A stretch of DNA of 64,000 bases from Mobula birostris (lineage: Eukaryota). Positions 1 to 45,232 of this stretch are shown here, in pieces. The notes beneath the pieces were generated by a model. It saw only the letters and a program-made list of their open reading frames with translations, was not told the origin of the DNA and did not search any database. The stretch spans positions 132,004,766 through 132,068,765 of the forward strand of contig NC_092371.1 of NCBI RefSeq assembly GCF_030028105.1, read 5' to 3'. Position 1 is the first letter of the stretch, and every line of letters starts with the position of its first letter. The position numbers were made by a program, and so were the translations under genes.

Positions 1-928
1 TAACGTCCGATTGCGGAAAATTAAATAATCCCTCCCTTCCCCAGAGATAGTCTCCCACCTCTCGTCCTCTATCTCCAAGCTCCATTTTCTGCCCCTTCCT
101 TCGGCGAGGAACTCCGAGAAGACGGCAGCAATGCGGGAAGCAGGTAGGAGGTAGGACCTGCGGGTTCCAACAGGACTTTTGTTCCGGCACCGCACCCTCC
201 CCTTCAGGGTGAGGCTCCAGACCTCAGGATCCTGAGAAGGGCGGAGCCCGGAATCGGTGACAGGCTGTTAGGGCTCCGAGAGGCGAGACCCTCCGACAGC
301 GCACAATGAGGACAGAGAAGGGGAGAAACAGCCGGCAGGGGGGACAGTGAGACTGAGAGAAAATGTGGGGGTAGAGCGTGTCAGGACTGGGGTCAATAGG
401 CTGACCATACCTGCTAACTAGACTGCCTCTCTGTCTGGTTAGCTCAATATGTTCTTGCATTAAACTATTTTACCCATTCATCTTCCGCTTTATGCGGATT
501 TTAATTCCCGTCATCGAGGAATCTAATCGAACATCATTAGCGAGGAACCCCTGCCTCTTTCCCCTCCAGCTGAGCAGGAACGATGGGCATTGGTCGAGAC
601 CACCAAGTGTTGGTGGTGTGTAGGAATGCTGGGCTACTTTGCAGTTTTGCTGGTGTACCCGAGTGCAGATGGGTGATCACCCTGACACACGTACAGTATT
701 GGGGTAGTCGTCCACAGGAGTCCGTGGGCTGCATGCTGCTGCTGCTGCTGCTCGAGTGGGGGCAGTAACCATGCTGGGAGTTCTTGCTTCCCATATCCAC
801 AATGCAGAAATACTCAGCACTGTGATTCTTACAAGCTGCAATGTAAACCCCGAAACAGAACCCCCTCAATATTACCACTCAAGGTATTCTGGCACTTCCG
901 CCATAATTTCTGCTTGTTTTGTTACATC

Positions 929-1135
929 GTCACTCACAACACGCTGGAGGAACTCAGCAGGTCGGGCAGCATCCGTGGAAAGGATCAGTCAACGTTTCGG
1001 GCCGGAACCCTTCGTCAGGACCGGCCCGAAACGTTGACTGGTGGTTCCTACGGATGCTGCCCGACCTGCTGAGTTCCTCCAGCGTGTTGTGAGTGTTGCT
1101 TTGACCCCAGCATCTAGAGTATTTTGTGTTTACGA
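929..1135. mobile_element. Palindromic Penelope-terminus-derived mini-element with TSD
   Basis: Near-perfect inverted repeat 931-1095, flanked by duplicated tttgttacatc (918-928 and 1136-1146). Sequence resembles the ends of the element at 26980-29467. Confidence 0.8.
987..1022 (-). ncRNA. Minimal type I hammerhead ribozyme motif
   Basis: Minus strand reads GGUC-CUGACGA-A-GGGUUCCGGCCC-GAAA-CG-UU-GACU: intact core, stem I, stem II and palindromic stem III. Confidence 0.7.
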
Positions 1136-2280
1136 TTTGTTACATCATCTCCTCCATAAGGGCCAGTAGATGGGGACAGAGGACCATTGTCTTGACAGAG
1201 GGGACTGCATTGCCCAGGGATACCTGATCCACAGGCATTTAGACCGATCATTGTTTCTTTCTCTGAATGTCCCCTCCCTCCCCAGATGTAGTGGGCTTCC
1301 TTTGCACAAAGAGACGTTTGAAGGAAAAAGTTACAACAGCAGAGATAACAGGAACGTCACACAAACTCAGCTGCCAAGTCATTTATTTCCTCAGTCTAAC
1401 AGTCCTCCAAGTTTGATCAGTGATTTAATTATAAAGATTTGAGATTCCCTTGCTACTCCTTACATACAGGTCTCCTGTCCCCCTTTCTTTCTCTCACCCT
1501 TGTACCAGAGGTAGTCAGGAAGCCAGGTGTAGACCACAGGCAAAGCTCAGTCACAGTGATCCAGAAAGGGGGCTGGGATTAACCTGTCCTTTGATTCCAA
1601 GGAATACACAGACACATTGGAGAGTACTGCCCAGATATTATTGTTAGAGAGCCAGTATCTAGACACCCGAAATTGTGTTGAAATTCCATGACGGCAGCTG
1701 AGGGGGTTTTTGAGCCCGAATGATTAAAAGGTGGACTCATAAGCTGCGTGGAGAGGGGAAGGCTGCTGCATAGGCAACAGCTTGCTCTCTATATGGTACT
1801 GCCCTGGCTTGCACATACAGCTAGTACACAATATCCATGGTTGATTTCAACAAATGGAGGGCCTCCAGATTAAATCTGGAATTAAGCAGCTGGAATCAGA
1901 AATGAAATGGCCAGTTGTTTACCTCCTTGAATACATTCTCTGTCCCACTCTAAGAGGTACTTCAGTGGCAGTGAAGCTATGCCTGATTTAGGCAGCAAGT
2001 ACTGGCCTCTAGATGAGATCAATGAGCCATTGGAGAGTCACTGCTAAATGTGGGACATTGACCCATTGGTAGTTAGAAGGGGGCCTGGTCAAACACTGGA
2101 CAGCAAACCCCAGTGTCACCAGATGCCAGCTTGGCTGAGAGCAGACCCAGGTTAAATCAAACTACAAGCAGTCTTTGACCAATACAGCCCACTCTGGGCA
2201 TCCTCTCCACAGACAGGCCTGCCTGCTCCAGAGCTGCTGGCTTAATGTACTCCATTAGAACACTGTTCAATGTATAAATA

Positions 2281-2286
2281 TTTATT
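2281..2286 (-). terminator. Candidate BROX polyadenylation signal (AATAAA), implying a ~2-kb 3' UTR
   Basis: tttatt on the plus strand in an AT-rich context downstream of the stop codon; not unique, no transcript evidence. Confidence 0.3.
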
Positions 2287-3149
2287 TTTTCTCATCAACA
2301 TAAATCATTTAACTGTAGAGCAGCAGAGATTACATGATAAACAGGTATCTTAACAAGAAGCAGGAATAATATTACAATCAAACTAATATTCACACTCTCA
2401 TTCATTCACAGAATTATACAATTCCCCAGAAAGATTAATAGACTTTATGGCTGAATTTACATGTTTAATGATCTACAGATTTGCTATTGTCTCATTGTGA
2501 AGGTGTTTAAGGACTGGGGTGATCTCTACCTACACTGACTGCATTCACCACTGGAGCCTGCTGGGGATGAACCCACCACATTCAGACTGGCCTAGGTCTA
2601 CAATACAGCTTTGAAACAGCACTGTATCGAGTATCCAGGATTTCAGTTGTTACCCCTCTTCTGTTCACAAGCCATTATCTCAATCGCTCCTAGATCCATT
2701 CATTCCAAGCATCAAACCTCCTGCAACGCCATGGACAAGCACAGGCTTGGGATCGTGGAAAGAGCCTCACCAGCCTATCCAACTGTAGATAGTCACACAG
2801 AGAACTTTCATCCATCAGCTTGTACAGCAGTGAGCAGCCACTAGGAGACACCCTCCTTGATCACAAGCCCCAGTTTGGCTGAAATATCAGTGTGATTGAA
2901 GGCTGGGACCAGGGATAGAAGCTGGCTGTAAGGCAAGGAGCTAGTCTGGCTTTGGGCCTTGCTTTCCATCCCATTCAAGGAAAAATCTGACAATTAATCC
3001 CAACTCAAGATATTGAGATTTAAGTGCATTAACTTTAAGTATGGTTACAGCAGTACATAGGTATATCACACATCATGGTTCTTCCTTCAAAAGAGTTGGA
3101 GATTCATCAATTACAACCCCTGCCCCCGATTTACCCTCACCTACACATA

Positions 3150-3305
3150 AGGGGTCATTTATAGTGCCAATTAATCTCGCCACCTGCACATCTTTGAGGT
3201 GTGGCCAGAAACTGATGGAGAATATGTAAACCCCACACAGACAGCACTGGAGGTGAGGATTGAACCTGGTCTCTGGCACTGAGGCAGTGGCTTTAACAGC
3301 TACGT
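3150..3305 (-). mobile_element. tRNA-derived SINE (HE1/V-SINE-like), degenerate
   Basis: Reverse complement shows a B-box-like ggttcaatcc and V-domain-like sequence. Confidence 0.55.
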
Positions 3306-4249
3306 AATTTCCTTGTATTCTTTTCTGATTCACTGGCTGATTTTATATCATTAACAACACTGAAGTGTTCTGGAGGCAGTTGGAAAACTTAACTATTACA
3401 GGGTTAGTGTTAGAATTAGTGGGTGGTCTGATTTAGGAGTAAATTGAAAATGAAGGCAGTCTTTGTATGGAAAGAGTCTTTGTATCATGGTCTTGAAACA
3501 CTGCACACAGGCAGTGCCACATTGCCAATGGAACAAGATATTACAAGCAGCTCAGCTGACAAGTAGGGAAGCCTCCAGGAACTTTGACTGCCACCATTGA
3601 GCATGTCAGAATTCAATATACTGGGCTTCTGTTCTAGCCCAGGTTTGGTCAGAATGAACAGAGTAACCTCCGTGTGTGTGGCTCGTGGGGAAAAGACAGA
3701 CTAATCAAACTGCTGCTGGGAAAGTAAAGCGTGGAGGGCCTGGGGAATACAGACGCCCCTCTCACTCTTGGCCCCACCCAGACTACTGGAAGAAAAAAAA
3801 GCTTCAGATGTGTGACCGAAATTAAATAAGTAGGAATGTTTGTCAAGTGCTCTGGGATGATCCAGTTCGGGTGTTTAAAGTCAGTTACTGCAAACCAATA
3901 GGTAAATGGGAAAATGACTACAGTTTACATCAGGTCCTGAATACTAATCTCTCACTTTCCCAGGATGAGCAGAAGAGTGCTTGCAGACAGGGCAACACTG
4001 ACCAGAGGGTAACCGCTTCTCGTTCCAGTATCCGAGACAGCAGGATGACACAATGCAAGCAGCCACTTGGTTACTTGCAATGTACCTTAAGTTTCATTGC
4101 AAAGAGCACTCAGTGAATGGGGCATAAAAAAAGAAAAAACAGACTGTGTTTCAGTTCTTGGCTGTTGCAAAAAAGTCCTTTCTGAAGATAGATCTGCACT
4201 CAATGCAGAGGAGACCATGCAGTTGAGTCAGTTCCCGCTGCTTGTCTCT

Positions 4250-4333
4250 TTATGAAACAGAGCAGCCAGTGTCTTTCTGGGGTTTCAGGTCTGGCTCCTT
4301 CATTGGCTTCACCTCTTCCTCCTTCACTTTGGC
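4250..4333 (-). CDS. BROX: BROX last coding exon (84 nt incl. TAA): [27 protein letters not shown]
   Basis: tttcCAG acceptor and TAA stop at 4252-4250. Ends in a CAAX motif. The 12 exons sum to 1233 nt with no frame break. Confidence 0.95.
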
Positions 4334-4499
4334 CTGGAAAGGAGATGAACACAACATCCAGTCACATATTAAGCAACTGAGAAGTTAAAGAATAGTGGTG
4401 CTGGCTAGTAGAGGACTGCCACACTGATAGGCACTTAGTAAAGGTGCTATTCAGAAAACACCTCTGCACAAGATGAACTTACTGTATACAGATATGGAA

Positions 4500-4975: not shown

Positions 4976-5229
4976 TAGCCAAAGTTAACTGTAATTTTCC
5001 AAAATGCAAACAGGTCTTCATGAGGTCAGACAGCATCTGTGAAAGGAAAAACAGATTAAACTTTATCTTGGTTCCTCTTTCCACAGATGCTGCCCAGTCT
5101 GCTGAATTCTTAGCACCTGCAGCTTTGTTTTTCAGTGTGGGCCAATCCCAGGTTAGAATTGGAAATCAGTGGGAGTCTCAGCCACTCACAACCCATGTCA
5201 CAGACTGAGAGGATAGCTTTGTAATCTAA

Positions 5230-11523: not shown

Positions 11524-14500
11524 TTTTTTATATAAGTATCTTATTTTCAAAATTTTCACAAAAAAAACTATGAAATCAACAAAAACATACCAGCTCAGAC
11601 ATGTATAAAAAAGAAATAGGCAAAAAAAAGACATAACATTAGAGGGATGCCTATTGTACAAAGTGCTCAAAAATACTAAACATTAAATCTCAAATGAGAG
11701 CCCTGAGAAATCAGCTGGGGGGAAATTGCTCATCCGCCCCCGGCCTGGTCCAGGTAGGCAAGAAATGGATCCCAGATAGCCGAAAATTTTTTACTTGAAT
11801 TGGTTTTCAAGAACCTAAGTTTCTCCATCTGTATGACTGAGATCATATCAGCCATCCATCTCCGAATGGAAGGGGGAGAAGGTGATTTCCATTCCATCAA
11901 GATAAGTCTTTTGGCAACAATCATCCCCAGCATCAGAGACCGTTGTATGGCTGCAGGGAAACAAATAGCAGATTGCGAGCAGCCAAATATAGCGAGACCA
12001 GCTTCCAAGGGGAAGGATCTTTTATAGGCCTTTCAGTACCAGTTGAATATTTTGGACCAAAATCCAGTCAGTAATGGGCAAAACCAAAAGGTGTGTGACA
12101 ACGTGGCTTCCATTCCTTGGCATCTATCACACATTGGCGAGACAGAAGGGTAAATCCCGTGCAATCTAAGTTTACAGTAATGGAGACGGTGGACAACTTT
12201 AAACTGGGTCAGTTGGTGCCTGCTGTTAACAGAGTAAGCCTTATCCCAGGCAGCTTCAGATAATTCAATGCCCAACTCCTCTCTCCAGGTGTGTCTAATC
12301 TTCATAGTAGACACCACAGTGCAATTATCAAACAAATGTACAAACTTAGAAACGAGATGCCTGGAGTCAGGAGGGTTCTTTAAAATATCAAAAAACATAT
12401 GTTTCCCTGGAAGGATTTCAAAATTACAAATCTTAGACTGAATGTAGTGTCTAATTTGCAAATAATGAAAAAAGTACGAATGAGGCAGCTCAAACTTCTC
12501 TTTCAGCAGACTAAATGTTGCAAACCATCCCTCTATGTACAGGTCTTCAATAGAAACTAGACCCTTCTCCCTCCAAGCATGGTAGGTTTTATCTAATCAT
12601 GAGGGTAGAAAGGAATGATTGAAACAGATTGGTGTTTGTACAGAGGTCTCTGGTAAATTCAGAACACTCCTCCTCTGATGTAGAATTCTGATGGAATTTT
12701 TCAAAACAAAACTCAAACTTTTTGAAGTCCCAGGCTTCTCTAACTTGGAGAACAGCATGGCTGGCAAGGAGGAATTGACAACAGAGTTGGACTCCATACA
12801 CAGCCACAAAACATTAGAACCCTAGCACTGACAGCCCAATAATAGTGTCTAATCCCAGCCCTCCTTCAGACTTGAGCTTTTGTAAATGGATTTTCAAAAT
12901 CCTGTGATTCTTATAATTCCAGATATAAGACAATATTATGGAGTCCAACTCTTTAAAGAAAGCTGATGGAAGAAAAATGGGGAGATTTTGACAAAGATAA
13001 AGAAACCTAGGAAGGGAAACCATTTTAATTGAATTTATACCACCAATCATGGACAGAGGTAGAGTTTTCCAACTTTCTATATTCTGTTTTAAGTTTTGAA
13101 ATAAACTCCACGAAGTTTAATTTGAATATTAATTTAGAATCTTTGGGGATTGTCGAGCCGAGATAAGTAACTACTTTCAACGGGACACTTTCCAAAAAAC
13201 CCCGTGTGTAGTCATTGGAGAGGGGCACAAAGTCACTTTTCGTCCAATTGAGTGAGTATGCCGATAGTCTGCCAAAAGAGGTGATTAAATTTAGAAGGGG
13301 GACTGACTTTTCTGAGTTTTGTAAGTAGAGTATCACATCGTCAGCATATCAACTAGTAAGTGTGTCATTCCTCCCACTTTCAAACCCAGAATATTTGGGT
13401 GACATCTTATTTTTAAGGCAAGGGGCTCTACTGCGACGGCAAAAAGGGCCGGCGAGAGAGGGCGCCCCCTGCTGGACTGAACGGTGTAGGGGAAACTGAG
13501 CTGACTTGTCACCATTAGTTATAATAGAACACATTGGGCTAGTGTTGATCAGTTTTACCCAAGATACAAATAACTCCCCAAGCCCAAACCTGTACAGTGA
13601 CTCAAACATGTAAGGCCACTCAATCTGGTCAAAAGCCTTTTGTGCATCAAGGGATAAAATTGCTGCCCCATTAGCTTTCCCATGATCCGCGTATATAGTA
13701 TTAAGGAGGCATCTGACATTGGAAAAAGAGAACCTACCTGGGACAAATCCTGTCTGATCAGGATGAATGATAGATGACAAATACTTATTTAGTTGGTTAG
13801 CCAGCATTTTAGTAATTACTTTTCTATCAAAATTCTGGAGTGCAATGGGCCTATAGCTGGCCGGGTCTGTTTCGTCTTTACCATTCTTTAAAATGAGGGA
13901 AATGTTAGCCTCGTACAATGTTTTATCTCCCTCAGAGCAAAATATCATTCTGAGGAGAAGTGGGGCAAGGGTATCACAGAATTTCTTATAAAATTCACAG
14001 CCAAATCCAGCAGTCTTGCCGGATGGAAATGACTTAATGGCAGAAGTTATTTCTTCCAATGTGAAGGCAGAAGTTATTTCTTCCAATGTGAAGTCAGAAT
14101 CTAAATCCTCCCTAGCAGCGTCACTAAGTTTCAGCATTACAAGAGAGTCAAAGAAGTCATTCAAATCAGATAGCGTGGCATTGCATTTAGAGGTGCACAG
14201 TTCACTGTAAAATTCCTTAAAACAGTCATTTATCCCCTTGGGGTTAGTTAGCAGGTGCCCGCCCTCGATCTAATGCAGTGAATTGACCTCAGGGCCTGGG
14301 CGCCCCTGAGCTGCCGCGCCAGGAGCCCCTCAGGCTTCTCCCCCATTTCGAAATGCTTTTATCTTAATTTTAACAGGAGGTTATTTATTTGACTACCCAA
14401 GATACAATTGTACTCATACTTAAGCTTCATTATTTTATTATAATCTTCAGAGGATTTCGAAGCCTGGTATGTCACTTCGATGGTTGGGAGAGTATTCTCA

Positions 14501-16931
14501 ATCTCTAATAATCGCCCTTCTCTCTCCCTCTTAGCATCGGATTCACATGAAATTATATACCCAAGAATTACAACTTTTAATGTCTCCCAGAGTGTGGAAT
14601 CTGACACCTCGCCGTTATCATTAATTTCTATAAAATCTTTTAATCTGGTGGTGATATATTCTATAAATTTCTTATCGACGAGTAGGGAGGGGTTAAAATG
14701 CCAGGAATAGATTTGTTTGGAAAGGGAGAGATTTAGTGACATTGTCAAGGGGCTATGGTCAGAAATTAAACTATCATGATACTTTGTATTGGTAACACGA
14801 GATATTAAATGAGAGTCAACCAAAAATAGACTATTCTGCTATAAGATTTGTGAACGTGAGAATAATAAGAATAATCCTTGTTGACGGGATGTTGAACTCA
14901 CCAAATATCTACTAAATTCCTAGATCTAATCAAATTATTTAGGGCCTGCACTGACACGATATTTGAGGGTGGGCGGGAGGACAATCTATCTAAATATGGG
15001 TCCAGGTAGCAATTCAAGTCACCGCTGATTATTATATTTGAATTACCGGCATCTGGAAGTAAATCAAAAGCTTTCCTAAAAAGATTTCGCTCGTCTGTGT
15101 TTGGACCATAAATACTAAGGAAGGTTAGCAGAAACGAATTAATGGTGCCAGAGATCATCATAAATCTGCCAAGAGGGCCTGTGGTCATGGAAGTGAGTTG
15201 AAATGGAATATTTTTCCTAAAGAGGACAGCCACACCACGGGCATGAGAAGTAAATGATGACTGGTAAACCTGCGATATCCAGCTAGACCTCAATCTGCAT
15301 TGCTCAGTTACTTTGATATGGGTTTCCTGCAGAAAAATCACATTCTGCAGATTTGAGATGTCTAAAAACTTTATCCCTCTTAGCAACATGACCAAGGCCC
15401 TTAACATTCCACGAGACTATTGTAATATCTTTACCCCCCCCCAGCTGTGTTCTACCGCAAGGCCTCTGCATATGAGAATAAAAAGGAGATTATTAGAGTT
15501 GAGCACAAACATAGTAAACAATGCAAAATAACTGGCAGCTTCATAAGAACACAACATCCACCAAAAAAACATGTCTGAGCTATAAACAGGAACAACGCAC
15601 ACCCTAACCCACCCCCTTCGTGTCTCCCTAAACCAGACACATAGTTCCCCATTTCCATCCCAAAAGGAGCTGCTGGGCAGGTAACTAACATTACACAATT
15701 ATCACAAACCCCCTCTCCGAGAAAATTTATAACACAAATTATATAATACCATTAAACAAATGCTATTATGGCTGGGGAGATGTATCCAACCCTTATAACA
15801 AAAATATTTAGAACATTCTCTGCAATTAAATTCCAGTGTGACATACAGCATTTCAAAACTACATATAACAAGCAAGTCCCTCCCCTTATCCCAACATGGA
15901 AACCGGCACAAATATAAGCTGAATAAACTGTCAATATATCTACTCCCTTTTGAGTGCATTATTCCTTTCCAAGAATTGTGCTGCTTCTATCGGGTCGTCA
16001 CATACTTTAGGCGCTCTTCCATCTTGATGATAAATATAGAGCCTAGCCGGATATCGCATCGTGTGCTTGATTCCTCCATCACGCAGAGTTTGCAGTACAT
16101 CACGAAAGGCACGACATTGAGTCATCGCCTCTTTAGTATAGTCCGGGAAGATCAAGACCTTATTCCCCTTGTACTCCATGGGTCGTAATCTGCTGCGGCG
16201 CAGGATCAGCCCTTTCACTTGAAAGTGATGGATACGTGCCAAGATGGTGCGCAGTTTCCCGCTGGCAGCCGGCTTCGGATAGACAGAGCGATGTGCGCAA
16301 TCGACTTTAACCGGATATGGGAAATGCTCTTCCCCAAGCAACTTAGGAATCAGTCTGGAAACAAATTCAGTAGGTTTACCACCCTCCTTGCCCTCTTGTA
16401 TTCCTACAATCTTAATATTATGTCTCTAAGTCATGCACTTCAGCTTCAAGCTGGCTATTTTGTCTCATTAGCTCTGAATACTTAACTTCAAGCTCTAGCA
16501 CGCGTGTTTCAAGGTCACTGGTGGTTAGTTCTTGACTAGCCACACGGGCTTGTAAGTCAGCCTGGGAGGCCACAAGCGCCTCAAACTTGGTCTCAAAAAC
16601 ATCAAAGCGGTCGTTAATGTCGCGCAGAACTGACTCAGAAATCTCCCGACCTAATTCCTTACACATGGCTCAAGTTTTATCCGGCGGTATCTCAGACGCG
16701 GAGAAGTTCTTTACAGACCCCTCGTTAGCACTAACTTGGGTAGTTTGGCAGTCAGCAGTCTCGGATTTATTTGCCTTCGGCATTGTCAAACTTTTCCAGA
16801 CACTTAGTTTAGACATACTGTTGGCCTATGAATGAATAAAACACAGTATAATAGTAATTTTATCGAGGCCTCAGAGAGGAGCACTGACCAAACATGGCTA
16901 ATCCATACGCATGCGTACTAGCGTCCCCCCT
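11524..16931 (-). mobile_element. Full-length degenerate L1-clade LINE (ORF1 ~16783-15940; ORF2 EN+RT ~15410-11730)
   Basis: ORF1 coiled-coil and IFPDY/MRYPARL motifs. ORF2 FLQETH, GDLN, SDH (APE endonuclease), YRPIAL, DQTGF, SLDAQKAFD (RT). Poly(A) remnant at 11521-11529, G-rich 5' start, TSD cacttggttcttt (11511-11523) / cactcggttcttt (16932-16944). Many frameshifts. Confidence 0.92.
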
Positions 16932-17370: not shown

Positions 17371-17550
17371 CTGCAGCATAAAGATGGTCAGATGAGAACT
17401 GTAGTCTCCGTCTTCAAATATACTAACACTCTGCTCTATCCACCACTGTCTCAACTCATCTGCTCTTAAATCTTACTGACACTCTGTCTATTCCAAATCA
17501 TTCCTGGTCACCTTCCACACTTAACGCTCTTTAAACTATCCTGTCTGTCC

Positions 17551-17890
17551 CCTGCCATTGATCCACGCCCAGTCCCATCCCCCGCCATTGATCCACGCCC
17601 AGTCCCGTCCCCCGCCATTGATCCACGCCCAGTCCCGTCCCCCGCCATTGATCCACGCCCAGTCCCGTCCCCCGCCATTGATCCACGCCCAGTCCCGTCC
17701 CCCGCCATTGATCCACGCCCAGTCCCGTCCCCCGCCATTGATCCACGCCCAGTCCCGTCCCCCGCCATTGATCCACGTCCAGTCCCGTCCCCCGCCATTG
17801 ATCCACGCCCAGTCCCGTCCCCCGCCATTGATCCACGCCCAGTCCCGTCCCCGCGCCATTGATCCACACCCAGTTTCGTCCCCTGCCACC
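17551..17890. repeat. 30-bp GC-rich minisatellite, ~11 copies (cccgccattgatccacgcccagtcccgtcc)
   Basis: Directly visible tandem units with very few substitutions. Confidence 0.97.
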
Positions 17891-18464: not shown

Positions 18465-20085
18465 GACAACTCTGGCAGGGTTTGCAAGACATTACTTCCT
18501 ACAAAGCGAAACCCAATAGCATGAATGGCAGCTATGTGCCACCACCAGATGAACTCAACGCCTTCTATGCCCACTTTGAAAGGGAGAATATAACTACAGC
18601 TGTGAAGATCCTTCCCTGCTGCACCTGATGACCCTGTGCCCTCTGTCTCAGAGGCCGATGTTAGGCTGTTTCCAAAGAGGGTGAACCCTCGCAAGGCAGA
18701 AGGTCCCGATGGAGTACCTGGTATGGCTCTGAAAACCTGTACCAACCAACTGGCAGGAGTATTCAAGGACATTTTCAATCTCTCACTGCTACGGGTGGAA
18801 GTTCCCACTTGCTTCAAAAAGGCAACAATTATACCAGTGCCTAAGAAGAATAATATGAGCTGCCTTAATGACTATCACCCCATAGCACTCACATCGACAG
18901 TGATGAAACACTTTGAGAGGTTGGTCATGACTAGACTGAACTTCTGCCACAATAGGTCAGCAGCAGATGCAATCTCAATGGCTCTGTACTTCCCTCTGCA
19001 ATTGGATCCTCGACTTCCTAACTGGAAGACCACAATCTGTGTGGATTAGTGATAACATCTCCTCCTCGCTGACGACCAACACTGGTGCACCTCGGGTGTG
19101 TGCTTCGCCCACTGTTCTACTCTCTGTATACACATGACTGTGTGGCTAGGCATAGCTCAAATACCATCTACAAATTTGCTGATGACACAACCATAGTTGG
19201 TAAAATCTCAGGTGGTGACGAGAAGGCGTACAGGAGTGAGATATGCCAACTAGTGGAATGGTGCCGCAGTAACAACCTGGCACTCAATGTCAGTAAGACG
19301 AAAGAACTGATTGTGGACTTCAGGATGGGTAAGACAAAGGAACACATACCAATCCTCAAAGAGGGATCAGAAGTGGAGAGAGTGAGCAGTTTCAAGTTCC
19401 TGGGTGTCAAGATCTCTGAGGACCTAACCTGGTCCCAACATATCGATGCAGTTATAAAGAAGGCAAGACAGCGACTATATTTCATTAGGAGTTCGAAGAG
19501 ATTTGGCATGTCAACAGATACACTCAGAAACTTCTATAGATTTATCTTGGACAGCATTCTGACAGGCTGCATCACTGTCTGGTATGGGGGGGGGGGGGGA
19601 GGGGAGGGGGCTACTGCACAAGACCGGAAGAAGCTGCAGAAGGTTGTAAATCTAGTCGGCTCCATCTTGGGTACTTGCCTACAAACTGCCCAGGACATCT
19701 TCAAGGAGCAGTGTCTCAGAAAGGCAGCGTCCATTATTAAGGACCTCCAGCAACCCAGGGCATGCCCTTTTCTCACTGTTACCATCAGGTAGGAGGTACA
19801 GAAGCCTGAAGGCACACACTCAGCGATTCAGGAACAGCTTCTTCCCCTTTGCCATCCGATTCCTAAATGGACTTTGAATCCTTGAACACTACCTTAACTT
19901 TTTAAGTATATATTATTTCTGTTTTTTGCATGATTTTTAATCTATTCAATACACATATACTGTAATTTATTTACTATTTTACTTTTTTTCCTTTTATATT
20001 ATGTATTGCATTGCACTGCACTGCTGCTGCTAAGTTAACAAATTTCACGACACATGCCGGCGATAATAAACCTGACTCTGATTTT
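18465..20085 (+). mobile_element. Rex1/Babar-type LINE, 5'-truncated and internally deleted
   Basis: [45 protein letters not shown] motifs; 3' tail aataaacctgactctgatt. Confidence 0.85.
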
Positions 20086-26515: not shown

Positions 26516-27036
26516 CGCTAAAGTTATGAATTTTAAATGAGGGAAGGGGCATGGCCTTACAATTTGCACAACTTCACATAACAGAGCCACACTACTCATG
26601 AATCAAAGTGCTCATTTGTTTGTAGTTATTGTTCTGACGCGTCATCACTCCCATGGAATTTTATTATAACTATCCTCATTGTAAGAGGCTCAGACCATGA
26701 CAGTTACTATTACATCATCCAGTTTTTTTTTAAGACAAGACACATATCCCCATTGTTTATGCCAGTGCATACTTTCCAAGCCCTGCTTGGGTACTCAATA
26801 CAGTTTGTGTTGAAATAACTGCCCAGCTTTTAAGCTCTGGCTCCAATTGTTTTTGCAAACAGAAATACTGCACAACTATTTTGTGTGTGTGAGTGTGCAT
26901 GCTTTTTTTTTTAAAAAAAAGGACAGGGCTATGGGTAAAGAGAGTTGAGGATGGGTCATGCAAGATTTCTTCTGTGCCTCACATCAAAATTGCTGGTGAA
27001 CACAGCAGGCCAGGCAGCATCTCTAGGAAGAGGTAC

Positions 27037-27072
27037 AGTCGACGTTTCGGGCCAAGACCCTTCGTCAGGACT
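27037..27072 (-). ncRNA. Minimal type I hammerhead ribozyme motif (Penelope-associated)
   Basis: AGUC-CUGACGA-A-GGGUCUUGGCCC-GAAA-CG-UC-GACU: perfect stem I, 4-bp stem II, ACGU palindromic stem III, GUC cleavage triplet. Confidence 0.78.
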
Positions 27073-29330
27073 AACTGAAGGAAGAGCTAGTAAGAGATTT
27101 GAAAGTGGGAGGGGGAGGGGGAAGGGGGAGATCCAAAATGATAGGAGAAGGCAGGAGGGGGAGGGATGGAGCCAAGAGCTGGACAGGTGATTAGCAAAGG
27201 GGATATGAGAGGATCATGGGACAGGAGGCCCAGGGAGAAGGAAAAGGGGGAGGGGGGGAAACCCAGAGGATGGGCAAGGGGTATAGTCAGAGGGACAGAG
27301 GGAGAAAAAGGAGAGAGAGAAACAAAGAAAGAATGTGTGTATATAAATAAATAATGGATGGGGTACAAGGGGGAAATGAGGCATCAGCAGAAGTTAGAGA
27401 AGTCAATGTTCATGCCATCAGGTTGGAGGTTACCCAGACGGAATATAAGGTGTTCTTCCTCCAACCTGAGTGTGGCTTCATCTTTACAGTAGAGGAGGCC
27501 GTGGATAGACATGTCAGAATGGGAATGGGATGTGGAATTAAAATGTGTGGCCACTGGGAGATCCTGCTTTCTCTGGCGGACAGAGCGTAGGTGTTCAGCA
27601 AAACGATCTCCCAGTCTGCGTCGGGTCTCGCCAATATATAGAAGGCCACATCGGGAGCACCAGACGCAGTATATAACCCCAGCCGACTCACAGGTGAAGT
27701 GTTGCCTCACCTGGAAGGACTGTCTGGGGCCCTGAATGGTGGTAAGGGAGGAAGTGTAAGGGCATGTGTAGCACTTGTTCTGCTTACAAGGATAAGTGCC
27801 AGAAGGAATATCAGTGGGGAGGGATGGGAGGGGGACGAATGGACAAGGGAGTCACGTAGGGAGCGATCCCTGCGGAAAGCAGAGAGAGGCGGGGAGGGAA
27901 AGATGTGCTTAGTGGTGGGATCCCGTTGGAGGTGGCAGAAGTTACGGAGAATAATATGTTGGATCCAGAGGCTGGTGAGGTAGGTGAGGACCAGAGGAAC
28001 CCTATTCCTAGTGGGGTGACGGGAGGATGGAGTGACAGCAGATGTGCGTGAAATGGGGGAGATGCGTTTGAGAGCAGAGTTGATGGTGGAGGAAGGGAAG
28101 TCCCTTTCTTTAAAAAAGGAGGACATCTCCCTCATCCTGGAATGAAAAGCCTCATCCTGAGAGCAGATGTGACAGAGACGGAGGAATTGCGAGAAGGGGA
28201 TGGCATTTTTGCAAGAGACAGGGTGAGAAGAGGAATAGTCCAGATAGCTGTGAGAGTCAGTAGGCTTATAGTAGACATCAGTAGATAAGCTGTCTCCAGA
28301 GATAGAGACAGAAAGATCTAGAAAGGGGAGGGAGGTGTCGGAAATGGACCAGGTAAACTTGAGGGCAGAGTGAAAGTTGGAAGCAAAGTTAATGAAGTCA
28401 GCGAGCTCAGCATGCGTGCAGGAAGCAGCGCCAACGCAGTCGATGTAGCAAAGGAAAAGTTGGGGAAAACTCCAGAATAGGTTTGGAACATAGATTGTTC
28501 CATAAAGCCAACAAAAAGACAGGCACAGCTAGGACCCATACGGGTGCCCATAGCTACACCTTTAGTTTGGAGGAAGTGGGAGGAGCAAAAGGAGAAATTA
28601 TTAAGAGTAAGGACTAATTCCGCTAGACGGAGCAGAGTGGTGGTAGAGGGGAAATGATTAGGTCTGGAATCCAAAAAGTAGCAGAGAGCTTTGAGACCTT
28701 CCTGATGGGGGATGGAAGTAATAGGAACTGGACATCCATGGTGAAAATAAAGGTGGGGGCCAGGGAACTTAAAATCATCGAAAAGTTTAAGAGCGTGAGA
28801 AGTGTCACGAACATAGGTAGGAAGGGATTGAACAAGGGGGGAGAAAACCGTGTCAAGTAGGCCAGAGAAAGCAGAATCTCCCAGTGGCCACACATTTTAA
28901 TTCCACATCCCATTCTGATATGTCTATCCATGGCCTCCTCTACTGTAAAGATGAAGCCACACTCAGGTTGGAGGAACAACACCTTATATTCCATCTGGGT
29001 AGCCTCCAATCTGATGGCATGAACATTGACTTCTCTAACTTCCACTAATGCCCCACCTTCCCCTTGTACCCCATCCGTCATTTATTTATATACACACATT
29101 CTTTCTCTCTCTCCTTTTTGTCCCTCTGACTATACCCCTTGCCCATCCTGTGGGTTTCCCCCCCTCCCCCCTTTCCTTTTCCCTGGGCCTCCTGTCCCAT
29201 GATTCTCTCATATCCCTTTTGCCAATCACCTGTCCAGCTCTTGGCTCCATCCCTCCCCCTCCTGTCTTCTCCTATCATTTCGGATCTCCCCCTCCCACTT
29301 TCAAATCTCTTACTAGCTCTTCCTTCAGTT

Positions 29331-29366
29331 ACTCCTGACGAAGGGTCTCAGCCTGAAACGTCGACT
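29331..29366 (+). ncRNA. Minimal type I hammerhead ribozyme motif (second copy)
   Basis: ACUC-CUGACGA-AGGGUCUCAGCCU-GAAA-CG-UC-GACU; core intact, one stem I mismatch. Confidence 0.65.
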
Positions 29367-30189
29367 GTACCTCTTCCTAGCGATGCTGCCTGGTCTGCTG
29401 CGTTCACCAGCAACTTTGATGTGTGTTGCTTGAGTTTCCAGCATCTGCAGAATTCCTCATGTTTATGTTCTTCTGTGCCTTATGGAATAGAATTCTATTT
29501 CCTGCACCTCCACCTGGTCTTTCTTTTCCCACTTCTGACAATTTCCTTTTCTGCACAAGTTACATAAATAGCAAATAAAAACCTACTTAAATAATATGAA
29601 GCTCAGAAATTGCATAGAGAATTCTAAAAAAGGGGTTACATCTCTGGATAGTCATCACGGAGTATAAAAGATAACTGGAACTTTGGATGGCTTGCTTAAA
29701 ACATTAATTCTTTCTAGAGCAATTTCCTAAAATGATCTAGGAGTTTAAGTAGACTCTTCCAGGGAATGAAATAGCTGATAGTGAAGATAGTGTCCTTTGG
29801 GAAGGATCAGTGGGAAGAATCAAAATGCTTAGCATGGCTTAGTCTCTATCCCTTAAGAGATGTGAGTGGCAAATTTTTCACTCAGTAGTATCTGGAATGG
29901 GCTGCCAGAGGAGGTCAGTATGGAAGCAGGAGCAGTAATATTTAAGACACCTGGCCAGATATCTGAATGTGCAGGACACGGAGGAAAATGGAATTAGGCA
30001 TGATAGTTAACATAGATGCAGAGGGCCAAAGGGCCTGTTTCAGTGCTATGCAAGTTCAAGATATGGTCTGTTTTCATTCTGGTTGATAGCATTTTACTGA
30101 AAAACAGATAACCTGGCAGCCTTGGGTCTGCGGTAGTGCCAGATCAGCATGTTTTCTGGACCATTTACCTAGACACACTTATCTCACTT

Positions 30190-31812
30190 TTAAAAAGGTA
30201 GAGTGTTCCTATGAAATGGTTCATAAGCTGAAATATCCTAAAGCGAAGAAGCAATTACCATTTATTTATGGGAAAATTTTGTGAGCGTTCGCAGACCAAA
30301 AAATAACCTACCAAATCATGCCAAATAACACATAAAACCTAAAATAACAGTAACATATAGTAAAAGCAGGAATGATATAATAAATACACAGCCTATATAA
30401 AGTAGAAATACTTTTCCACAACCATTGCCTGCACTGTTCTCCATAGTGAAAATCTCACGCAAGCGCCGTTGGCAGAAAATCTCACGCAAGCGCTGTTGGC
30501 AAAAAAACGGCGCAAGCTCTCTCCAGTAACCTTTAAGCTATGAAGCTGCCAAATCATACCAAATAACACGTAAAAATACACAGCCTATATAAAGTAGAAA
30601 TAATGTATATACAGTGTAGTATCACTTACCGGAATTGGTTCAGCGCCGAGCACACTGATGGTGGTGTGTTAGACTAAGTCGTTGGAGGTTGGGGTGGTGC
30701 AGTGGCCCCCACCTTCCGGGCCACCAACCGATACCGATCCACGAAGCATGCAGGGGTGCAGTGGTAGCCAGGAGGCACACAGCACATCTTTAAGAAAAAA
30801 GCCCAAACAAACATGTTAATTAATTAGGTGCCGCCCAGCACATAAATGTCAGCCCAGATAAGTGCCGATTTCTGATTGCGTCGTCTCTGATCTGGGCCGA
30901 CAATTACGTGTCAGGCGGCACCTAATTAATTAGCATGTTTATTTTGGATTTTTTCTTAAAGATGTGCAGTGTGCCTCCCGGCTACCGCTGCATTCTCCGT
31001 GAATCGGTATCTGTCCGTGGCCTGGGGGTTGGGGTGGTGGGACACTGGGGTGTCGCCTGTTTCCATTAGAGCAGGTGGCTCATCTTCTCTTATGGCTGCC
31101 CGCCTCGATGTCGAAGGTCGAGGTTCGTCGTCTGCTGTGGCTGATGTGGAAGGCTTGCTTGACTGCTCAGCCTCGCGCATTTTTCTATCACACAGTTCTT
31201 TGTAAGGACTCAAACCATCTTGCAAATATCCCCTAAACCTATGTACTCTTTCAAAATTAAAGTCGTACTTTATCATTGCAGCGAAAATCTCACGCAGTTG
31301 CTTCACATTCAGTTCCTGGACGACTTCACTTTCGGTCCGTTCGCTACTGCATTTGGTTTTGATTGTTATCCTTTCCTTCCAATTGCATCAGCTCTTCATC
31401 TATCAGATCTTGGTCATGGGATGCCAAAACCTCTTCAACATCATCTTCATCAGCTTCCACAAGTCAAACTCACTTTGTCCTTGCTTCGTTCACCACGATC
31501 AAAACGCTTAATTATTTCTAGTTTTACGCTAAGCGTAACACCCTTACGAGTTCTTTTAGGCTTTTCCGATGCCATAGATCTCATCTTGCAAACTACTGGT
31601 CACAGGCACGTGTTTAAGCAATGCCGACAAGAATGCCGTTGCGAATCCGGGGGAGAGCCGCTGCTTGGGTCGCATGCTGCCTTTTATCGCGCGCTGATTT
31701 TTTTTCGTAAACAGTGAAAACACCTTCTGAAAGCGAAAACAGGGTACTAATGTAGGTCTTTCATAACAGTGAGGTTTTGTAAAGCGAACGTTCGAAAAGC
31801 GGGGGACACCTG
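30190..31812 (-). mobile_element. Internally deleted Tigger/pogo DNA transposon
   Basis: Right end ...gggggacacctg|TA. Minus-strand N-terminus MASEKPKRTRKGVTLSVKLEIIKRFDRGE (CENP-B/psq HTH-like) fused to a Tigger-like C-terminus (DFNFER...LSPYKEL). Left boundary degenerate and approximate. Confidence 0.72.
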
Positions 31813-36075: not shown

Positions 36076-36109
36076 GTGGTGAATATGAGCTTGGTTTCAC
36101 CATTTCAAA

Positions 36110-37108
36110 GAAGTTTGGATGGGTGGGGTACCGCAAGGTTCGGTGCTGGGACCACAGCTATTTACAATATACATTAATGATTTAGATGAAAGGATTAAAA
36201 GTAACATTAGCAAATTTGCAGATGACACAAAACTGGGCGACAGTGTGAAACGTGAGGAGGATGTTATGAGAATACAGGGTGACTTGGACAGGTTGGGTGA
36301 GTGGGTAGATGCATGGCAGATGCAGTTTAATGTGGATAAATGGGAGGTTATCCACTTTGGTGGCAAGAACAGGAAGGCAGATTACTATCTGAATGGTGTC
36401 AAGTTAGGAAAAGGGGAAGTACAACGAGATCTGGGTGTCCTTGTCCATCAGTCACTGAAAGTAATGACATGTTGGTCTTCATAACAAGGGGAGTTGAGTA
36501 TAGGAACAAAAAGGTCCTTCTGCAGTTGTACAAGGCCCTGGTGAGACCCCACCTGGAGTATTGTGTGTACTTTTGGTCTCCAAATTTGAGGAAAGACATT
36601 CTTGCTATGGAGGGAGTGCAGCGTAGGTTCACTGGGTTAATTCCAGGGATGGCAGGAATGTCATATGTTGAAAGATTGGAGCCACTGGGCTTGTATACAC
36701 TGGAATTTAGAAGGATGAGAAGGGATCTGATTGAAACATATAACATTATGAAAGGATTGGACATGCTAGAGGCAGGAAGCATGTTCCTGATGTTGGGGGA
36801 GTCCAGAACCGGAGGCCACAGTTTAAGAATAAGGGGTAGACCATTTAGAATGGAGTTGAGGAAAAACTTTTTCCACACAGAGGGTTGTGGATCTGTGGAA
36901 TGCTCTGCCTCAGAAGGCAGTGGAAGCTAATTCTCCGGATTCTTTCAAGAAAGAGTTAGATAGAGCTCTTAAAGATAGCGGAATCAAGGGACTTGGGGAG
37001 AAGGCAGGAACAGGGCACTGATTGTCGATGATCAGCCATGATCACAGTGAATGGCGGTGCTGGCTCGAAGGGCTGAATGGCCTACTCCTGCACCTATTGT
37101 CTATTGTT
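36110..37108 (+). mobile_element. Well-preserved CR1 LINE 3' part (RT C-half plus 3' UTR)
   Basis: GVPQGSVLGP, KFADDTKLG, LVRPHLEYC motifs; ctattgt tandem tail. Confidence 0.9.
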
Positions 37109-39895: not shown

Positions 39896-41359
39896 ATGAG
39901 GATCTTTTGAAACTTGCCAGCATTATAATGTTATATGCATACACCAGGCTCCCACAAACAAGTTTTGGGTTACCTATTTTTGTTGGCATTTGTGGGGATA
40001 AATATTACCCAGGACAAGACAATTCTTCTAAGCTTCTTAATAATTTCATACAATGTATTGCAGGGATATAATGGGAGGCAAAGCCTTAGTTTAATGTTGC
40101 ATTCTAAAATGGGCCCCAATTATAAAACTCGCCCCCAGTGTAGTCTTTTCTGCTCAAGTATCTTAAGTTGACCTTAAACACAAAGTCTTACAACTTAAGC
40201 TTGCAAACATTGAGTGACACTGCTCTACTAACAGTCTTCTAACCTGACCTGTTTATACCTACCATCTTTGTTCTTGTAATTATTACACCTCCAACTCCAC
40301 ATGCCTTCACTGCAGCACAAATCACACAGAGTGGTAAGCATATGGGACAGGCAGCCATCAGAAGTGGCTGAGGTAGGAATGGTACTATCTTTAAGAAGCA
40401 CTTGGATAGCCACATGGAGTAGCAGGGTTTTGAAGAATGTGACCAAACATTGGAAACTGGGACTAGCTAGTTGAACATGACCAGCGTGGACTAGGGGCTG
40501 AAAGAGATGTGTCTGTTCTGTATTGTTCTATGACTCCCCTATTAAGCCTTTCCCATCCACTGGTTTTCTGAGTAGTCTTTCTGAGAACATTTATTTATAG
40601 GAAGTGTGGATTGCAAACAGGACAGGCAATTTCTGCTCATCCCTAACTGAGCTCCAGGAGAAAACGAAGCCAAAAACAAATTACTTGCGATTTAGATATA
40701 GACAATGACAAAATGCTAATGAGAGTAGTCCTTACAGATGATTAGTAACATTCCAATGTTAGAAAACCAAGTTGACCAGGATTATTAAGACTATTTTCTG
40801 AATGTTATCTCTTTTGTAACACATGCTTTGAGAAAGCCCAAAATATCAGAAAGAAAGCTTTCACACAACTTTCACCACCTAAGGATATCCCAAACACTTA
40901 ACTAAAGAAGTTAACTGCATTCATGTAGTATTTTGACTGCATCCAGAATGGGACCAAAGGTTTCTGTCTACTTAAAGACTTCAGGATTTGAGATACCACA
41001 GGAAATAAAAGTAGAAGTTCAGCCATTATCATGTTCAATAGTAGACAAAGCACAAGGGAGTCCTATGGTCTACTTCTGTTCACAAATGTGGTGAATCCAT
41101 GGCATTCTCAACCCTGGAGAATAGTGGGAGTTCAATCATGGGGAAGGCGGGGGAGGTTTTTAAACGGGGAATAGATACAGTTTTGAAAGATCATTTCCAG
41201 AAGGTTCCAACCTAGACTATTCATGCTAAAACTGTATAAAACATTGCAGAGAAGATGTACGAAGATAGTCTACCCAGGCTGTGTGTTATTTCCCCATGGA
41301 ACAAATGAGACAGAGAGAATATTCAGTTGATTTAGAAACAAGATTATAGGAAGTCCAAT

Positions 41360-41552
41360 CACAAACAAGAGAAAATCTGCAAATGCTGAAAATCCAAGCA
41401 ACACACACAAAATGCTGGAGGAACTCGGAAGGCCAGGCAGCATCAACGTTAAAGAGTACAGTCAACGTCTCAGCCAAAATGTCGACTGTACTCTTTTCCA
41501 CAGATGCTACCTGGGCTGCTGAGTTCCTCCAGCATTTTGTGCATGTTGCTAC
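41360..41552. mobile_element. Palindromic Penelope-terminus mini-element with TSD, hammerhead core deleted
   Basis: cacaaaatgctggaggaactc ... gagttcctccagcattttgtg arms; ataggaagtc duplicated at 41346-41355 and 41557-41566. Confidence 0.75.
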
Positions 41553-43369
41553 GATGATAGGAAGTCTAAATTACAGGTTAAACAAAGGACTCGTTTACCA
41601 TAGCTGCTGAGTTCAGTTACCATAAAATTATATTTATATTAATTAATAGAAGAATTTACAGGGGAATTAAAAGGTGGGCTCTCAATACATGATCAGGTCT
41701 TAAGTTCTTCACCTGAAAGAATAAAGGGGGCAAAATCTCTCCACACATGTAAAAATACAGTGGCCCTAGTACTGGGAACAAGGATTAACCTTAAAACCAT
41801 TTTTAGCCAATACAAAAGAGATGCAGTGCAGAATACAGAGTACCCAAAACAAAGCATCTGAATTCATTGCTTTTACATCACATATGTCTTCATTTCAAAC
41901 CCTTTCACAGGACAGAGAGAAGAATCCACAAAAGCCAATTATGTGACCTGGTTTTAAAGCCAGTTCTCTGGGATGAACTTTTATTGCCTTCGGGGCGAGG
42001 TACAGTCAAGGTATTTTTAAAATCCTCAGGACATACCAGAAAGAAAAACAGATCCCCCACCAAAACAACAGTGTTAACATTGTCAAGCACTTTACAACAC
42101 TGAAGTACTTTTGAAGTGTAGCTATGTGATGAAGGGAAATGGGGTAACTTAATTTTATAAAAGTAGAGTACAGTACAAAAAGAGAGAATTTATGATCTAC
42201 TTTAAGTAATGTTGGTTGAGGGATACACGTTGACCAGGGAAAACCACAGTTCTTCTTTGAAAAGTGCTCTGGGATTCTTTACTTTCAGTTGAGCAAACAG
42301 TAGCAGCTTTGTATTTAGGATTGCACCTCTAACATAGCAGTACTTAGTACTCTAGCAAACTAATAGCCTGGATTGTGGCCATACCACAAGAGTAGAACTT
42401 GACACGAAAGCCATTTCAAGGCACAAGTGCCAACACAAATCCACTGATAAATCTAACTTCAATTAGTGTAAGTTAATTAACAGAAGGATGTGAAAAAAAT
42501 ATTAATAAAGAATTTTCTCACACTGCCTGAAAGGATGTTGTCCTGAAATTTATCAACGTAACCAAAAATGAAGTACCACTATAGTTCTTGAACTGCAGGA
42601 ATATGGACCCAGTGTCGGGAGGTAGGATTGATCCCATTGGGTCACAATGCACAAGTCCCCAAAGAATGGTGACAAAAACATACTCACACTACCATTAGCC
42701 CCACAAACAAAATGTTGGAGGAACTCAACAGGTCAGGCAGTACCAATGGAAATGAATAAACAGTCGATGATTTGGACCAAGACCATTCATCAGGAGGTGA
42801 AGGTGGGGGGAGGGAGAGAGGGAAGGAGTACTACCTTTAGCCTGAAGACCACCTTCAGATGTGTTGTATCATGCTATGTGCGCAGCACCAGGTGTCACTA
42901 GGTGTCACGAATGGCACAACAGTACACTCAGTGGCCACTTTATTAGGTATACCTTTCTAGAACTGGGTAGGACCCCCTTTTGCCCCCAGAACAGCCTGAA
43001 CTCTTCATGGCATGGATTTAACAAGGTGCTGGAAACATTCCTTAGATTTTGGTCCATGTTGACATGATAGCATCACGTAGCACCATACCATTAGATCACC
43101 AGCAGCCTGAACCATTGATACAAGGCAGGATAGATCCATAGATTATGTTGTTTATGCCAAATTTTGACCTTATCATCTGCACGTTGCAGCAGAAATCAAG
43201 ATTTCTCAGACCAGGCGATGCTCTTCCAATCTTCAACTGTCCAGTTTTGGTAAGCCTATACCCACCGAGCCTCATTTCCCATTCTTAGCTGACAGGAGTG
43301 GAACGTGTTGTGGTCTTGTGCTACCGTAGCCCATCCACTTCAAGATTCAATGTGGTAAGATACAAAATA

Positions 43370-44047: not shown

Positions 44048-45232
44048 CCCCTTTCTTGATATCTCTCTGTCTCCATCTCTGGAGACAAACTGTCTACCAA
44101 TATCTTTTCTAAACCTACCAACTCCCATGGCTATCTTGACTATACCTCTTCCCACTCTGTCTCCACACTTTTCTCATTTCTTTTGTTTTCATCTGTTCCC
44201 AAGATGAGGCTTTTCTTTCCAAAACATCAGAAGTATCCTCCTTCTTCACAGAATGGGGTTTCCCTTCCTCCACTACCGATGCTGCCCTCACCAGGCATCT
44301 CTTTTCCCGAACATCTGCCCTCACCCCATCTTCCTGCCCCCTTAACAGGGTTAGAATTCCTCTTGTCCTCACCTACCATTTCATGAGCCGCTGCATTCAG
44401 CACATCATTCACCGCAACTTCCACCATTTTCAACGGAACCCTACCAAGCACAGCTTTACCTCCACCAACTCTCCACAAGGATCACTCCTTCCGTGATTCC
44501 CTTGTCTATTCGTCTCTCCCCACTCATCTCCCTCCTGGCACTTATCCCTGCAACTGGAAGAAATGCACCTCTTCCCTCACCTCCAATCAGGGCCCCAAAC
44601 AGTCCCTTCAGGTGAAGCAACACTTCACCTGCCAATCTGTTGGGGTCGTCTAGTGATGCACCCTCCTCCACATTGGTGAGACCTGATGAAGACTGGGGAC
44701 CACTTTATTGAGGACCTTCTCTCTAGAAGAAGAAAGAATTTTCTGGTGGCCAGCCATTTTAATTCCAATCCACATTCTGGTCTATGACCTCTTCTACCTG
44801 CTATGCTCAAGTTGGAAGAGCAACACCTCATTCTCTCTAGGTAGCCTCCAACATGATGGCATGAGCATTCATTTCTTCTTCCCTCTTCTTCTGTTCCTCA
44901 CTCTGCCCCCCCTTACCTCTTTTCGCCTCATGTGCTTATCACCTCCCCCTTGGTACCCCTTCCTTCCCTTTCTCCCATGGTCCTTCCATCAGAGTCCTTC
45001 TTCTCCAGTCCTTTATCTTTTCCATCTATCACCTCCTAACTTCTTACGTCATTCCAACTTCCCCACCCACCTTCTAGTTTGTACTCTTTCCTCTCCTCCC
45101 ACCTTCTTATGATGGCTTCTTACTTCTTCCTTTCTAGTCCTGATGAAGGGCCTCAGTCAGAAATATCAACTGTTAATTCATTTCCATATACGTTGCCTGA
45201 CCTGCTGAGTTCCTCCAGCATTTTGAATGTTA
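44048..45232 (+). mobile_element. Degenerate Penelope-like element 3' part with a hammerhead-like motif at 45136-45171
   Basis: Colinear with the reverse complement of 27000-28320; AGUC-CUGAUGA-...-GAAA-UA-UC-AACU. Confidence 0.8.

Follow-up and report, generated by a model that had tools for sequence, protein, structure and literature searches.

The hairpin insertion that lies beyond the stop codon of BROX in Mobula birostris is very probably made of two 5′-truncated ends of a Penelope-like element (PLE) in inverted orientation, and as such a non-replicating remnant. It was studied in a window of 64,000 nucleotides, the whole stretch of DNA analyzed here (contig NC_092371.1, positions 132,004,766 to 132,068,765). 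We regard it as an unremarkable product of an element type already known, at the short end of the size range, and it is predicted to be inert, likely a dead remnant. A sequence-only reading of the same DNA had left the choice between a minimal non-autonomous ribozyme retroelement and an extreme inverted truncation product. The evidence favors the latter, as relatives in the window have the same layout with other junctions and sequencing contigs run past the truncation point at 1021. It speaks against the former, given that the readable junctions differ, two of the window's short hairpins have no ribozyme core, and the ribozyme of this one is predicted to be sequestered. Coordinates are collected in Table 1.

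Table 1. Features of the focal insertion and of related sequences (window coordinates).
Feature	Position	Strand	Remarks
Focal Penelope-like hairpin insertion	within 918..1146, including duplications		207 bp between target duplications
Left target-site duplication (putative)	918..928		to 931 if 14 bp with one mismatch
Left arm, 5′-truncated Penelope pLTR end without tail	931..1021	−	sense on minus strand; 82% to 26998–27071; contigs begin at 931 and depart at 1021 into the element body
Bubble of 9 nt	977..985, partner 1041–1049		all 5 arm mismatches
Minimal type I hammerhead without helix III, GUU triplet	986..1023	−	predicted cut 991/990; predicted sequestered
Inversion junction	1021		C assignable to either arm, 1-nt overlap; family continues GGAC then TGAAG
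Right arm, second 5′-truncated copy, inverted	1021..1095	+	only 3′ half of hammerhead
Penelope 'tail', 40 nt, right arm only	1096..1135	+	aligns with tails of 29k and 41k copies; contig consensus
Right target-site duplication (putative)	1136..1146		to 1149 if 14 bp
BROX last coding exon and stop	4250..4336	−	E=7e-8 to human BROX C-terminus; stop 4250–4252
Third short family hairpin, decayed	5023..5152		other junction, no hammerhead core
Broken relative with RT and GIY-YIG pieces, 2.5 kb	26980..29467	−	inverted 563-bp arm, 44-nt tail, 13-bp TSD
Second short family hairpin	41359..41552		other junction, no CUGANGA box, left-side tail, TSD 17 bp with 2 mismatches

The palindrome at 931–1095 and the 11-bp flanking duplication, both pointed out in the sequence-only reading, are real. 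The palindromic arms (931–1005 and 1021–1095) measure 75 nt each, are 93% complementary and stand 15 nt apart, and the fold reaches −162.6 kcal/mol (z = −21.5), with none of 200 shuffles as good. The duplication, TTTGTTACATC, has only two occurrences on both strands of the 64-kb window, at 918–928 and 1136–1146. When extended, it becomes 14 nt with one mismatch (918–931/1136–1149), and in this longer reading the left arm is flush with it, which accounts for the 2 nt between the 11-bp duplication and the left arm. An empty site, seen as a joint skipping the whole element, was not found among the 15 of 126 joints listed. Sequence unique to each arm amounts to 15 nt (1006–1020) in the left and the 40-nt tail in the right, and the 20 bp adjoining the loop show no differences between arms. 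The tail at 1096–1135, which was absent from the sequence-only reading in the sense that it was not recognized there as belonging to Penelope, breaks the symmetry of the palindrome, and the inverted repeats are therefore not flush with both ends of the insertion. A MITE, that is, a DNA transposon with TIRs, is ruled out, since the right arm stops 40 nt before the duplication and the arms are the end of a retroelement. With both arms cut to ~100 nt, neither an ORF nor a direct pLTR is left in the element.

The kinship with PLEs that had been suggested by the ribozyme is borne out by homology to the pLTR end, by the tail, by the TSD and by a window relative with RT and GIY-YIG. The insertion displays four characters of EN+ Penelope insertions, namely pLTR-end homology, an inverted 5′-truncated copy, a one-sided tail of 30–40 bp and a short (putative) TSD. 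In published descriptions, an inverted 5′-truncated copy with a 30–40 bp tail at one end and TSDs of 8–10 bp is typical (PMC8557442, PMC3846280, PMC8969392). With EN+ PLEs of the Neptune/Nematis type the insertion shares the inverted 5′-truncated copy, the one-sided tail of 30–40 bp, a TSD of about 8–14 bp and the minimal hammerhead of the pLTR. Its window relative additionally shares an RT, a C-terminal GIY-YIG with CCHH and a CX2-5CxxC linker. The focal arms differ from such elements in being ~100 nt long, without ORF or direct pLTR.

A profile built from 13 window copies of the family end gave 17 hits in the 64 kb (13 of them by construction) and none on the reversed window. The focal left arm is only 82% alike over 74 nt to 26998–27071, and no direct parent subfamily was recovered. 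The most complete relative, at 26980–29467 (27k), repeats the focal layout at larger scale, with a tail-less arm and an inverted, 5′-truncated, tailed arm. It carries a GIY-YIG domain (Pfam E=7e-5) with the CCHH motif, and the ORF piece of its RT region is 57–60% identical to the three best shark proteins, the best match bearing RVT_1, in keeping with a cartilaginous fish as host; Pfam found an RT domain in none of the three broken window pieces. A CX4CxxC linker lies in 27384–27851 of this neighboring relative, and speaks for the relative only and not for the direct parent. A CX2-5CxxC linker before GIY-YIG is described as marking Neptune and Nematis and as absent from Penelope/Poseidon (PMC8557442). 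By this linker criterion, the sequence of the relative classes it with the Neptune/Nematis type; the Poseidon clade is disfavored, as the relative has the linker. This copy also has hammerheads at 27068–27045 (−) and 29335–29358 (+).

The focal, 27k and 41k insertions each have a TSD and have three different junctions. From the predicted cut site, the distance to the inner end is 60, 61 and about 70 nt and to the tail end 100, 105 and 105 nt, respectively. The tail-less arm reaches further at the junction in all three of these TSD-bounded two-arm insertions, too few to mean much, and a longer tail-less arm could reflect priming order. Long microhomology at the 27k junction is not claimed, as it cannot be fixed without an intact template. 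Two older family ends in inverted orientation, at 42708–42795 and 45138–45225, stand 2.3 kb apart with no clear TSD, and may be one interrupted element or two insertions. A search of the open literature found no paper on a Penelope family of this type in cartilaginous fishes, although it may well be catalogued.

Evidence from beyond the window comes from contigs of two DNA runs (organisms A and B) and of two runs guessed to be RNA, at a likeness of 90. Summed contig depth on the arms is 1.3–2.1 million versus 5–15 on the flanks; this depth is not a copy number, and the Penelope end family is very abundant, indeed huge. Among the 24 of 730 rows listed, the outer left end is common to the family, with 44 and 38 contigs beginning at about 930–931 and having no common flank. 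At the outer right end, 90 and 105 contigs of the listed rows stop at 1100, likewise with no common flank, and the tail consensus of three runs stops where the focal tail stops. In the same listed rows 73 and 76 contigs run on past 1021 into the body of the element, which identifies the left arm as a truncation, with one C common to both arms.

Junctions elsewhere in the family are diverse. Joints at a likeness below 95 or with sides shorter than 30 nt often come from repeats, and 10 of the 15 joints listed (of 126) have unknown letters between their sides and fix no junction. Linker rows were listed for 12 of 80, three of which are not arm-to-arm and were left out. Among the joints and linker rows listed, nine left-to-right arm joints have known linking letters and fall into six junction types (971>1053, 981>1065, 981>1091, 998>1050-53, 1009>1079 and 1014>1093/95). 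The focal junction is none of these; being part of the reference sequence, it could not appear as a joint. The junction from 998 to 1050–1053 recurs in three of the four runs, at depths of 47.8 (run X1, flanks at about 10), 20.1 and 65.3. Its linking letters differ per run, it sits on a shared 4-nt TTTC, and it removes the 5′ half of the ribozyme; given the differing linkers and the shared TTTC, microhomology suffices for its recurrence. The sequence-only reading had asked whether many copies share one inversion junction. The listed joints and the window hairpins differ in theirs, and the focal junction itself falls outside this comparison.

The intact hammerhead that had been announced for the minus strand is indeed there, a complete minimal core read at 1023–986. 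It runs from the 5′ strand of stem I (1023–1019) through CUGACGA (1018–1012), a bulged A (1011) and stem II (1010–999) to GAAA (998–995) and CGUU (994–991), after which the predicted cut (991/990) precedes the 3′ strand of stem I (990–986). Minimal hammerheads of PLEs are defined by a CUGANGA/GAAA/NUH core, a bulged nucleotide before stem II, G10.1-C11.1, a palindromic 15.2–16.2, a stem I of 4–5 bp and no helix III (PMC4209133), and the focal core has all of these sequence features. The plus strand holds only the 3′ half of the ribozyme, in the right arm, and the whole element has one complete core. The Rfam check proposed in the sequence-only reading came out negative, with no hammerhead family among the nine matches of the focal element at E≤10. 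These matches are hairpin look-alikes under their gathering scores, the best being mir-1791, far below its cut-off. The miss is likely due to PLE minimal hammerheads being without helix III (PMC4209133). In contigs of the DNA runs at ≥90% likeness, the triplet at place 991 is GUU in the majority of depth and GUC in about 33–36%, so that GUU characterizes a subfamily and does not reflect decay of the focal copy.

Folding predictions have the ribozyme blocked by its own hairpin. In a secondary-structure model with neither Mg2+ nor protein, stems I and II can be imposed at 2.6 kcal/mol on the isolated core or on the left arm alone, whereas the hammerhead fold requires 33 kcal/mol once the whole element is present. 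For five nascent transcripts of the minus strand the same model gives a penalty of 30–33 kcal/mol, a block that we ascribe to the complementary arm being transcribed first. On these folding energies, the focal hammerhead would be sequestered by its own hairpin and is predicted to be unable to adopt its fold in the native context. It is likely a passenger inherited from the pLTR of the parent. Metazoan minimal hammerheads are reported to show no cleavage as monomers and low cleavage as dimers (PMC4209133), and the hammerhead of the element PAc is reported to require protein and to be dispensable for insertion in vitro (PMC11167929).

Metazoan non-LTR retrozymes resemble the focal element in being short and non-coding and in bearing a type I hammerhead of PLE kinship (PMC7229834; bioRxiv 10.64898/2026.07.22.740005). 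As these sources describe them, retrozymes consist of units repeated head to tail, each containing a hammerhead, whereas the focal element pairs two copies in inverted orientation and has one and a half hammerheads, placed on opposite strands. A non-LTR retrozyme is ruled out, since the element has one complete core, is inverted and not head-to-tail, and has no second same-sense hammerhead, without which the retrozyme cycle outlined in the same two sources cannot run. A canonical hammerhead of the retrozyme type is ruled out as well by the lack of helix III/loop 3 and of an Rfam hammerhead at E≤10. Pattern scans with a 31-nt motif gave 0, 0 and 0 hits in viral, metagenome and prokaryote collections; 12 metagenome loci with a 20-nt motif were dropped, all 12 being chance matches of 19–25 nt.

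The formation of inverted Penelope structures has been described as undefined (PMC8557442). For the focal element we lean towards a single insertion event, with reverse transcription primed by each of the two cut DNA strands and the resulting cDNAs joined in inverted orientation. The GIY-YIG nuclease of an autonomous relative would have nicked both strands 11–14 bp apart in AT-rich DNA, as the TSD and the biochemistry of PAc suggest. One 3′ end would then have primed a cDNA at the inner start (931) and the other at the outer site (1135), 40 nt on. These ends are seen in the insertion, priming from them is our interpretation, and the different start sites would leave the tail on one arm alone. 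Both cDNAs would have ended prematurely, at lengths of about 91 and 115 nt, within the structured ribozyme or shortly beyond it, and their ends would have been joined at a 1-nt overlap and repaired. In minus-strand transcripts of the product, the complementary arm made first would, by computation, block the hammerhead. The scheme requires two primings, given that neither arm's sequence is fully contained in the other. Each arm extends across the cut site, so that both templates would have been uncleaved. An origin of the truncation by ribozyme cutting is ruled out by the cut site lying inside both arms. The overlap of 1 nt at the focal junction is thin support for annealing of the two cDNAs.

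Two known systems resemble this scheme. In L1 twin priming, both target strands prime cDNA and the joined cDNAs give an inversion; there, the cDNAs copy different parts of one RNA, whereas the focal arms copy the same stretch and yield a palindrome. The other is PAc (Poseidon, Anolis carolinensis; Frangieh et al. 2024, PMC11167929), which is reported to cut and extend both target strands, to prefer AT-rich DNA and to be a predicted dimer, and which starts reverse transcription at two internal sites bounding the tail with uncleaved RNA as template. The focal element agrees with PAc in the two RT starts downstream of the hammerhead that bound the tail, in the AT-rich target and in the uncleaved RNA template (PMC11167929). 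It differs in clade, PAc being of the Poseidon clade, so that the mechanism is transferred across clades, and in the spacing, which in the focal family is about 60–70 and 100–105 nt from the cut site. The PAc paper offers no explanation of the inverted join (PMC11167929).

The differences between the arms bear on the number of templates. All five mismatches (977, 979, 982, 983 and 985) fall within 9 of 75 nt (clustering p=2.7e-4), and the resulting bubble is the most variable stretch of the family among window copies. Both states at 977 and 979 occur in other window copies, the right arm reading TTCCTA like the 27k/29k copy and the left arm TTTCCAC like those at 41k and 5k; at position 982, C makes up about 51% and A 30% of contig depth in X1. 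Mismatches clustered in a variable stretch, with both states found elsewhere, suggest two template RNAs. We tentatively entertain that a dimeric Penelope RNP, acting on both strands during a single insertion, reverse-transcribed the arms from two RNAs belonging to different subfamilies, a reading that we hold to be possible and not probable. The arm bubble of the 41k hairpin lies in the same region and there resembles a local duplication, which argues against two templates and makes a hairpin-linked complex mutation a real alternative. A-to-I editing is ruled out as the source of the bubble, as three of the five differences are not A/G. No paper on two-template priming in PLEs was found in the open literature.

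The sequence-only reading had considered the insertion young because its CpGs are retained. Contigs of organism B span both boundaries, at 702–960 and 1086–1792, the latter with 22 differences in 707 nt. The insertion therefore sits at the same site in organism B and predates a split of about 3% flank divergence; it is not recent. The element has 14 CpGs (o/e 0.86), and CpG o/e is 0.55 in 1–917 versus 0.14 in 1147–4000, so that it borders a CpG-rich stretch, itself perhaps the margin of a CpG island. CpG retention is a weak clock here because the adjoining 1–917 is itself CpG-rich, and with the insertion also present in a second species ~3% diverged, the argument for youth is weak. A (GCT)n run at 733–750, within the CpG-rich stretch, is 9 nt shorter in organism B.

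The placement of the ribozyme relative to BROX was read correctly, as the minus-strand core lies in BROX sense 3.2 kb beyond the stop at 4250–4252. Two AATAAA motifs, at 2281–2286 and 1382–1387, stand between the stop and the element. Coverage of the 3′ side of BROX in the two putative RNA runs consists of deep contigs ending at 2291 and 2408 and of a contig of depth 3 over 1879–2117, and the unique flanks 700–882 and 1188–1675 are uncovered; the contig ends differ, a gap proves nothing, and these runs are not used as expression evidence. Elsewhere in the window, an unrelated palindrome, imperfect at 77% identity and about 330 bp long, occupies 30707–31034, adjoined at 30956–31387 by what we take to be a possible DNA-transposase fragment. 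A tandem array lies at about 17540–17890, and ORF pieces at 12033–16425, 18606–19792 and 36089–36930 may derive, judging by their motifs, from LINEs resembling the L1, Rex1/Babar and CR1 types.

Two other histories would leave a similar product. In a fold-back, the first cDNA would prime its own second strand and the second cDNA would supply only the tail end, the identity of the element staying the same. Self-priming has been proposed for Penelope inverted junctions (PMC3846280), and it would suit an overlap of only 1 nt at the focal junction, the identity of both arms over the 20 bp next to the loop, the weak 3-bp hairpin that the left cDNA end can form (−1.9 kcal/mol in a 32-mer) and the longer tail-less arm at the junction in three of three TSD-bounded two-arm insertions. 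A pure fold-back, however, is incompatible with a left arm that alone has the 15 nt together with a right arm that alone has the 40-nt tail, and it predicts identical arms where five clustered differences are observed. We thus consider this history unlikely, while fold-back self-priming could contribute to the join. The other history, a later collapse of a long two-arm insertion like that at 26980–29467 through deletion of an unstable centre, we judge improbable. Arms that are otherwise identical and an intact TSD leave little time for such a deletion, and short hairpins, of which the 64 kb hold three, are common, as frequent 5′ truncation would lead one to expect. Against this, long inverted copies are present in the window, microhomology-mediated deletions are reported to disable many rotifer Penelope copies (PMC3846280), and the interior of the ortholog in organism B lies outside the contigs seen.

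Readings that give the hairpin a life of its own fare worse than the inverted pair of truncated ends. That the 207-bp unit is transcribed and copied whole by a Penelope RT/GIY-YIG, as a replicating non-autonomous hairpin family, is very unlikely. Six junctions occur among the nine readable joints listed and three among the three window hairpins, there is no tandem same-sense hammerhead and the ribozyme is predicted to be blocked, and no promoter-bearing pLTR part is evident. The recurrence in three runs of a different junction (998 to 1050–1053) would fit replication, but it is explicable by microhomology at TTTC, with linkers differing per run. Such a family could still draw on both RT start sites and the tail, likely cis signals that the focal unit keeps, and on the reported ability of pLTR ends to mobilize other sequence in trans (PMC3846280), and the focal junction, as the contig reference, has its copy number outside the count. 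On balance, the focal element probably does not form a separate family. Domestication as an RNA element, acting on read-through transcripts of BROX by cleavage or termination or giving rise to small RNAs, is hardly credible. The BROX-sense orientation, presence in two species, 14 intact CpGs and a near-perfect stem would be in its favor, but two AATAAA signals precede the element, its hammerhead is predicted to be unable to fold, and with 17 family-end hits in the 64 kb, one close to the end of a gene is to be expected. Metazoan minimal hammerheads, moreover, are reported not to cleave as monomers (PMC4209133).

By itself the locus matters little, as one among very many Penelope ends. It is nonetheless a clean miniature, in which 207 bp display the two RT start sites together with tail, TSD and inverted join. 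Short Penelope hairpins of this kind can be mistaken for MITEs or for microRNA precursors, as the best Rfam match to mir-1791, below its cut-off, illustrates. An origin of the two arms from separate templates could be tested directly by comparing the arms of young hairpins across the genome, and should the two-template reading prove general, the many short hairpins of this genome would be a record that settles how Penelope inverted repeats arise.
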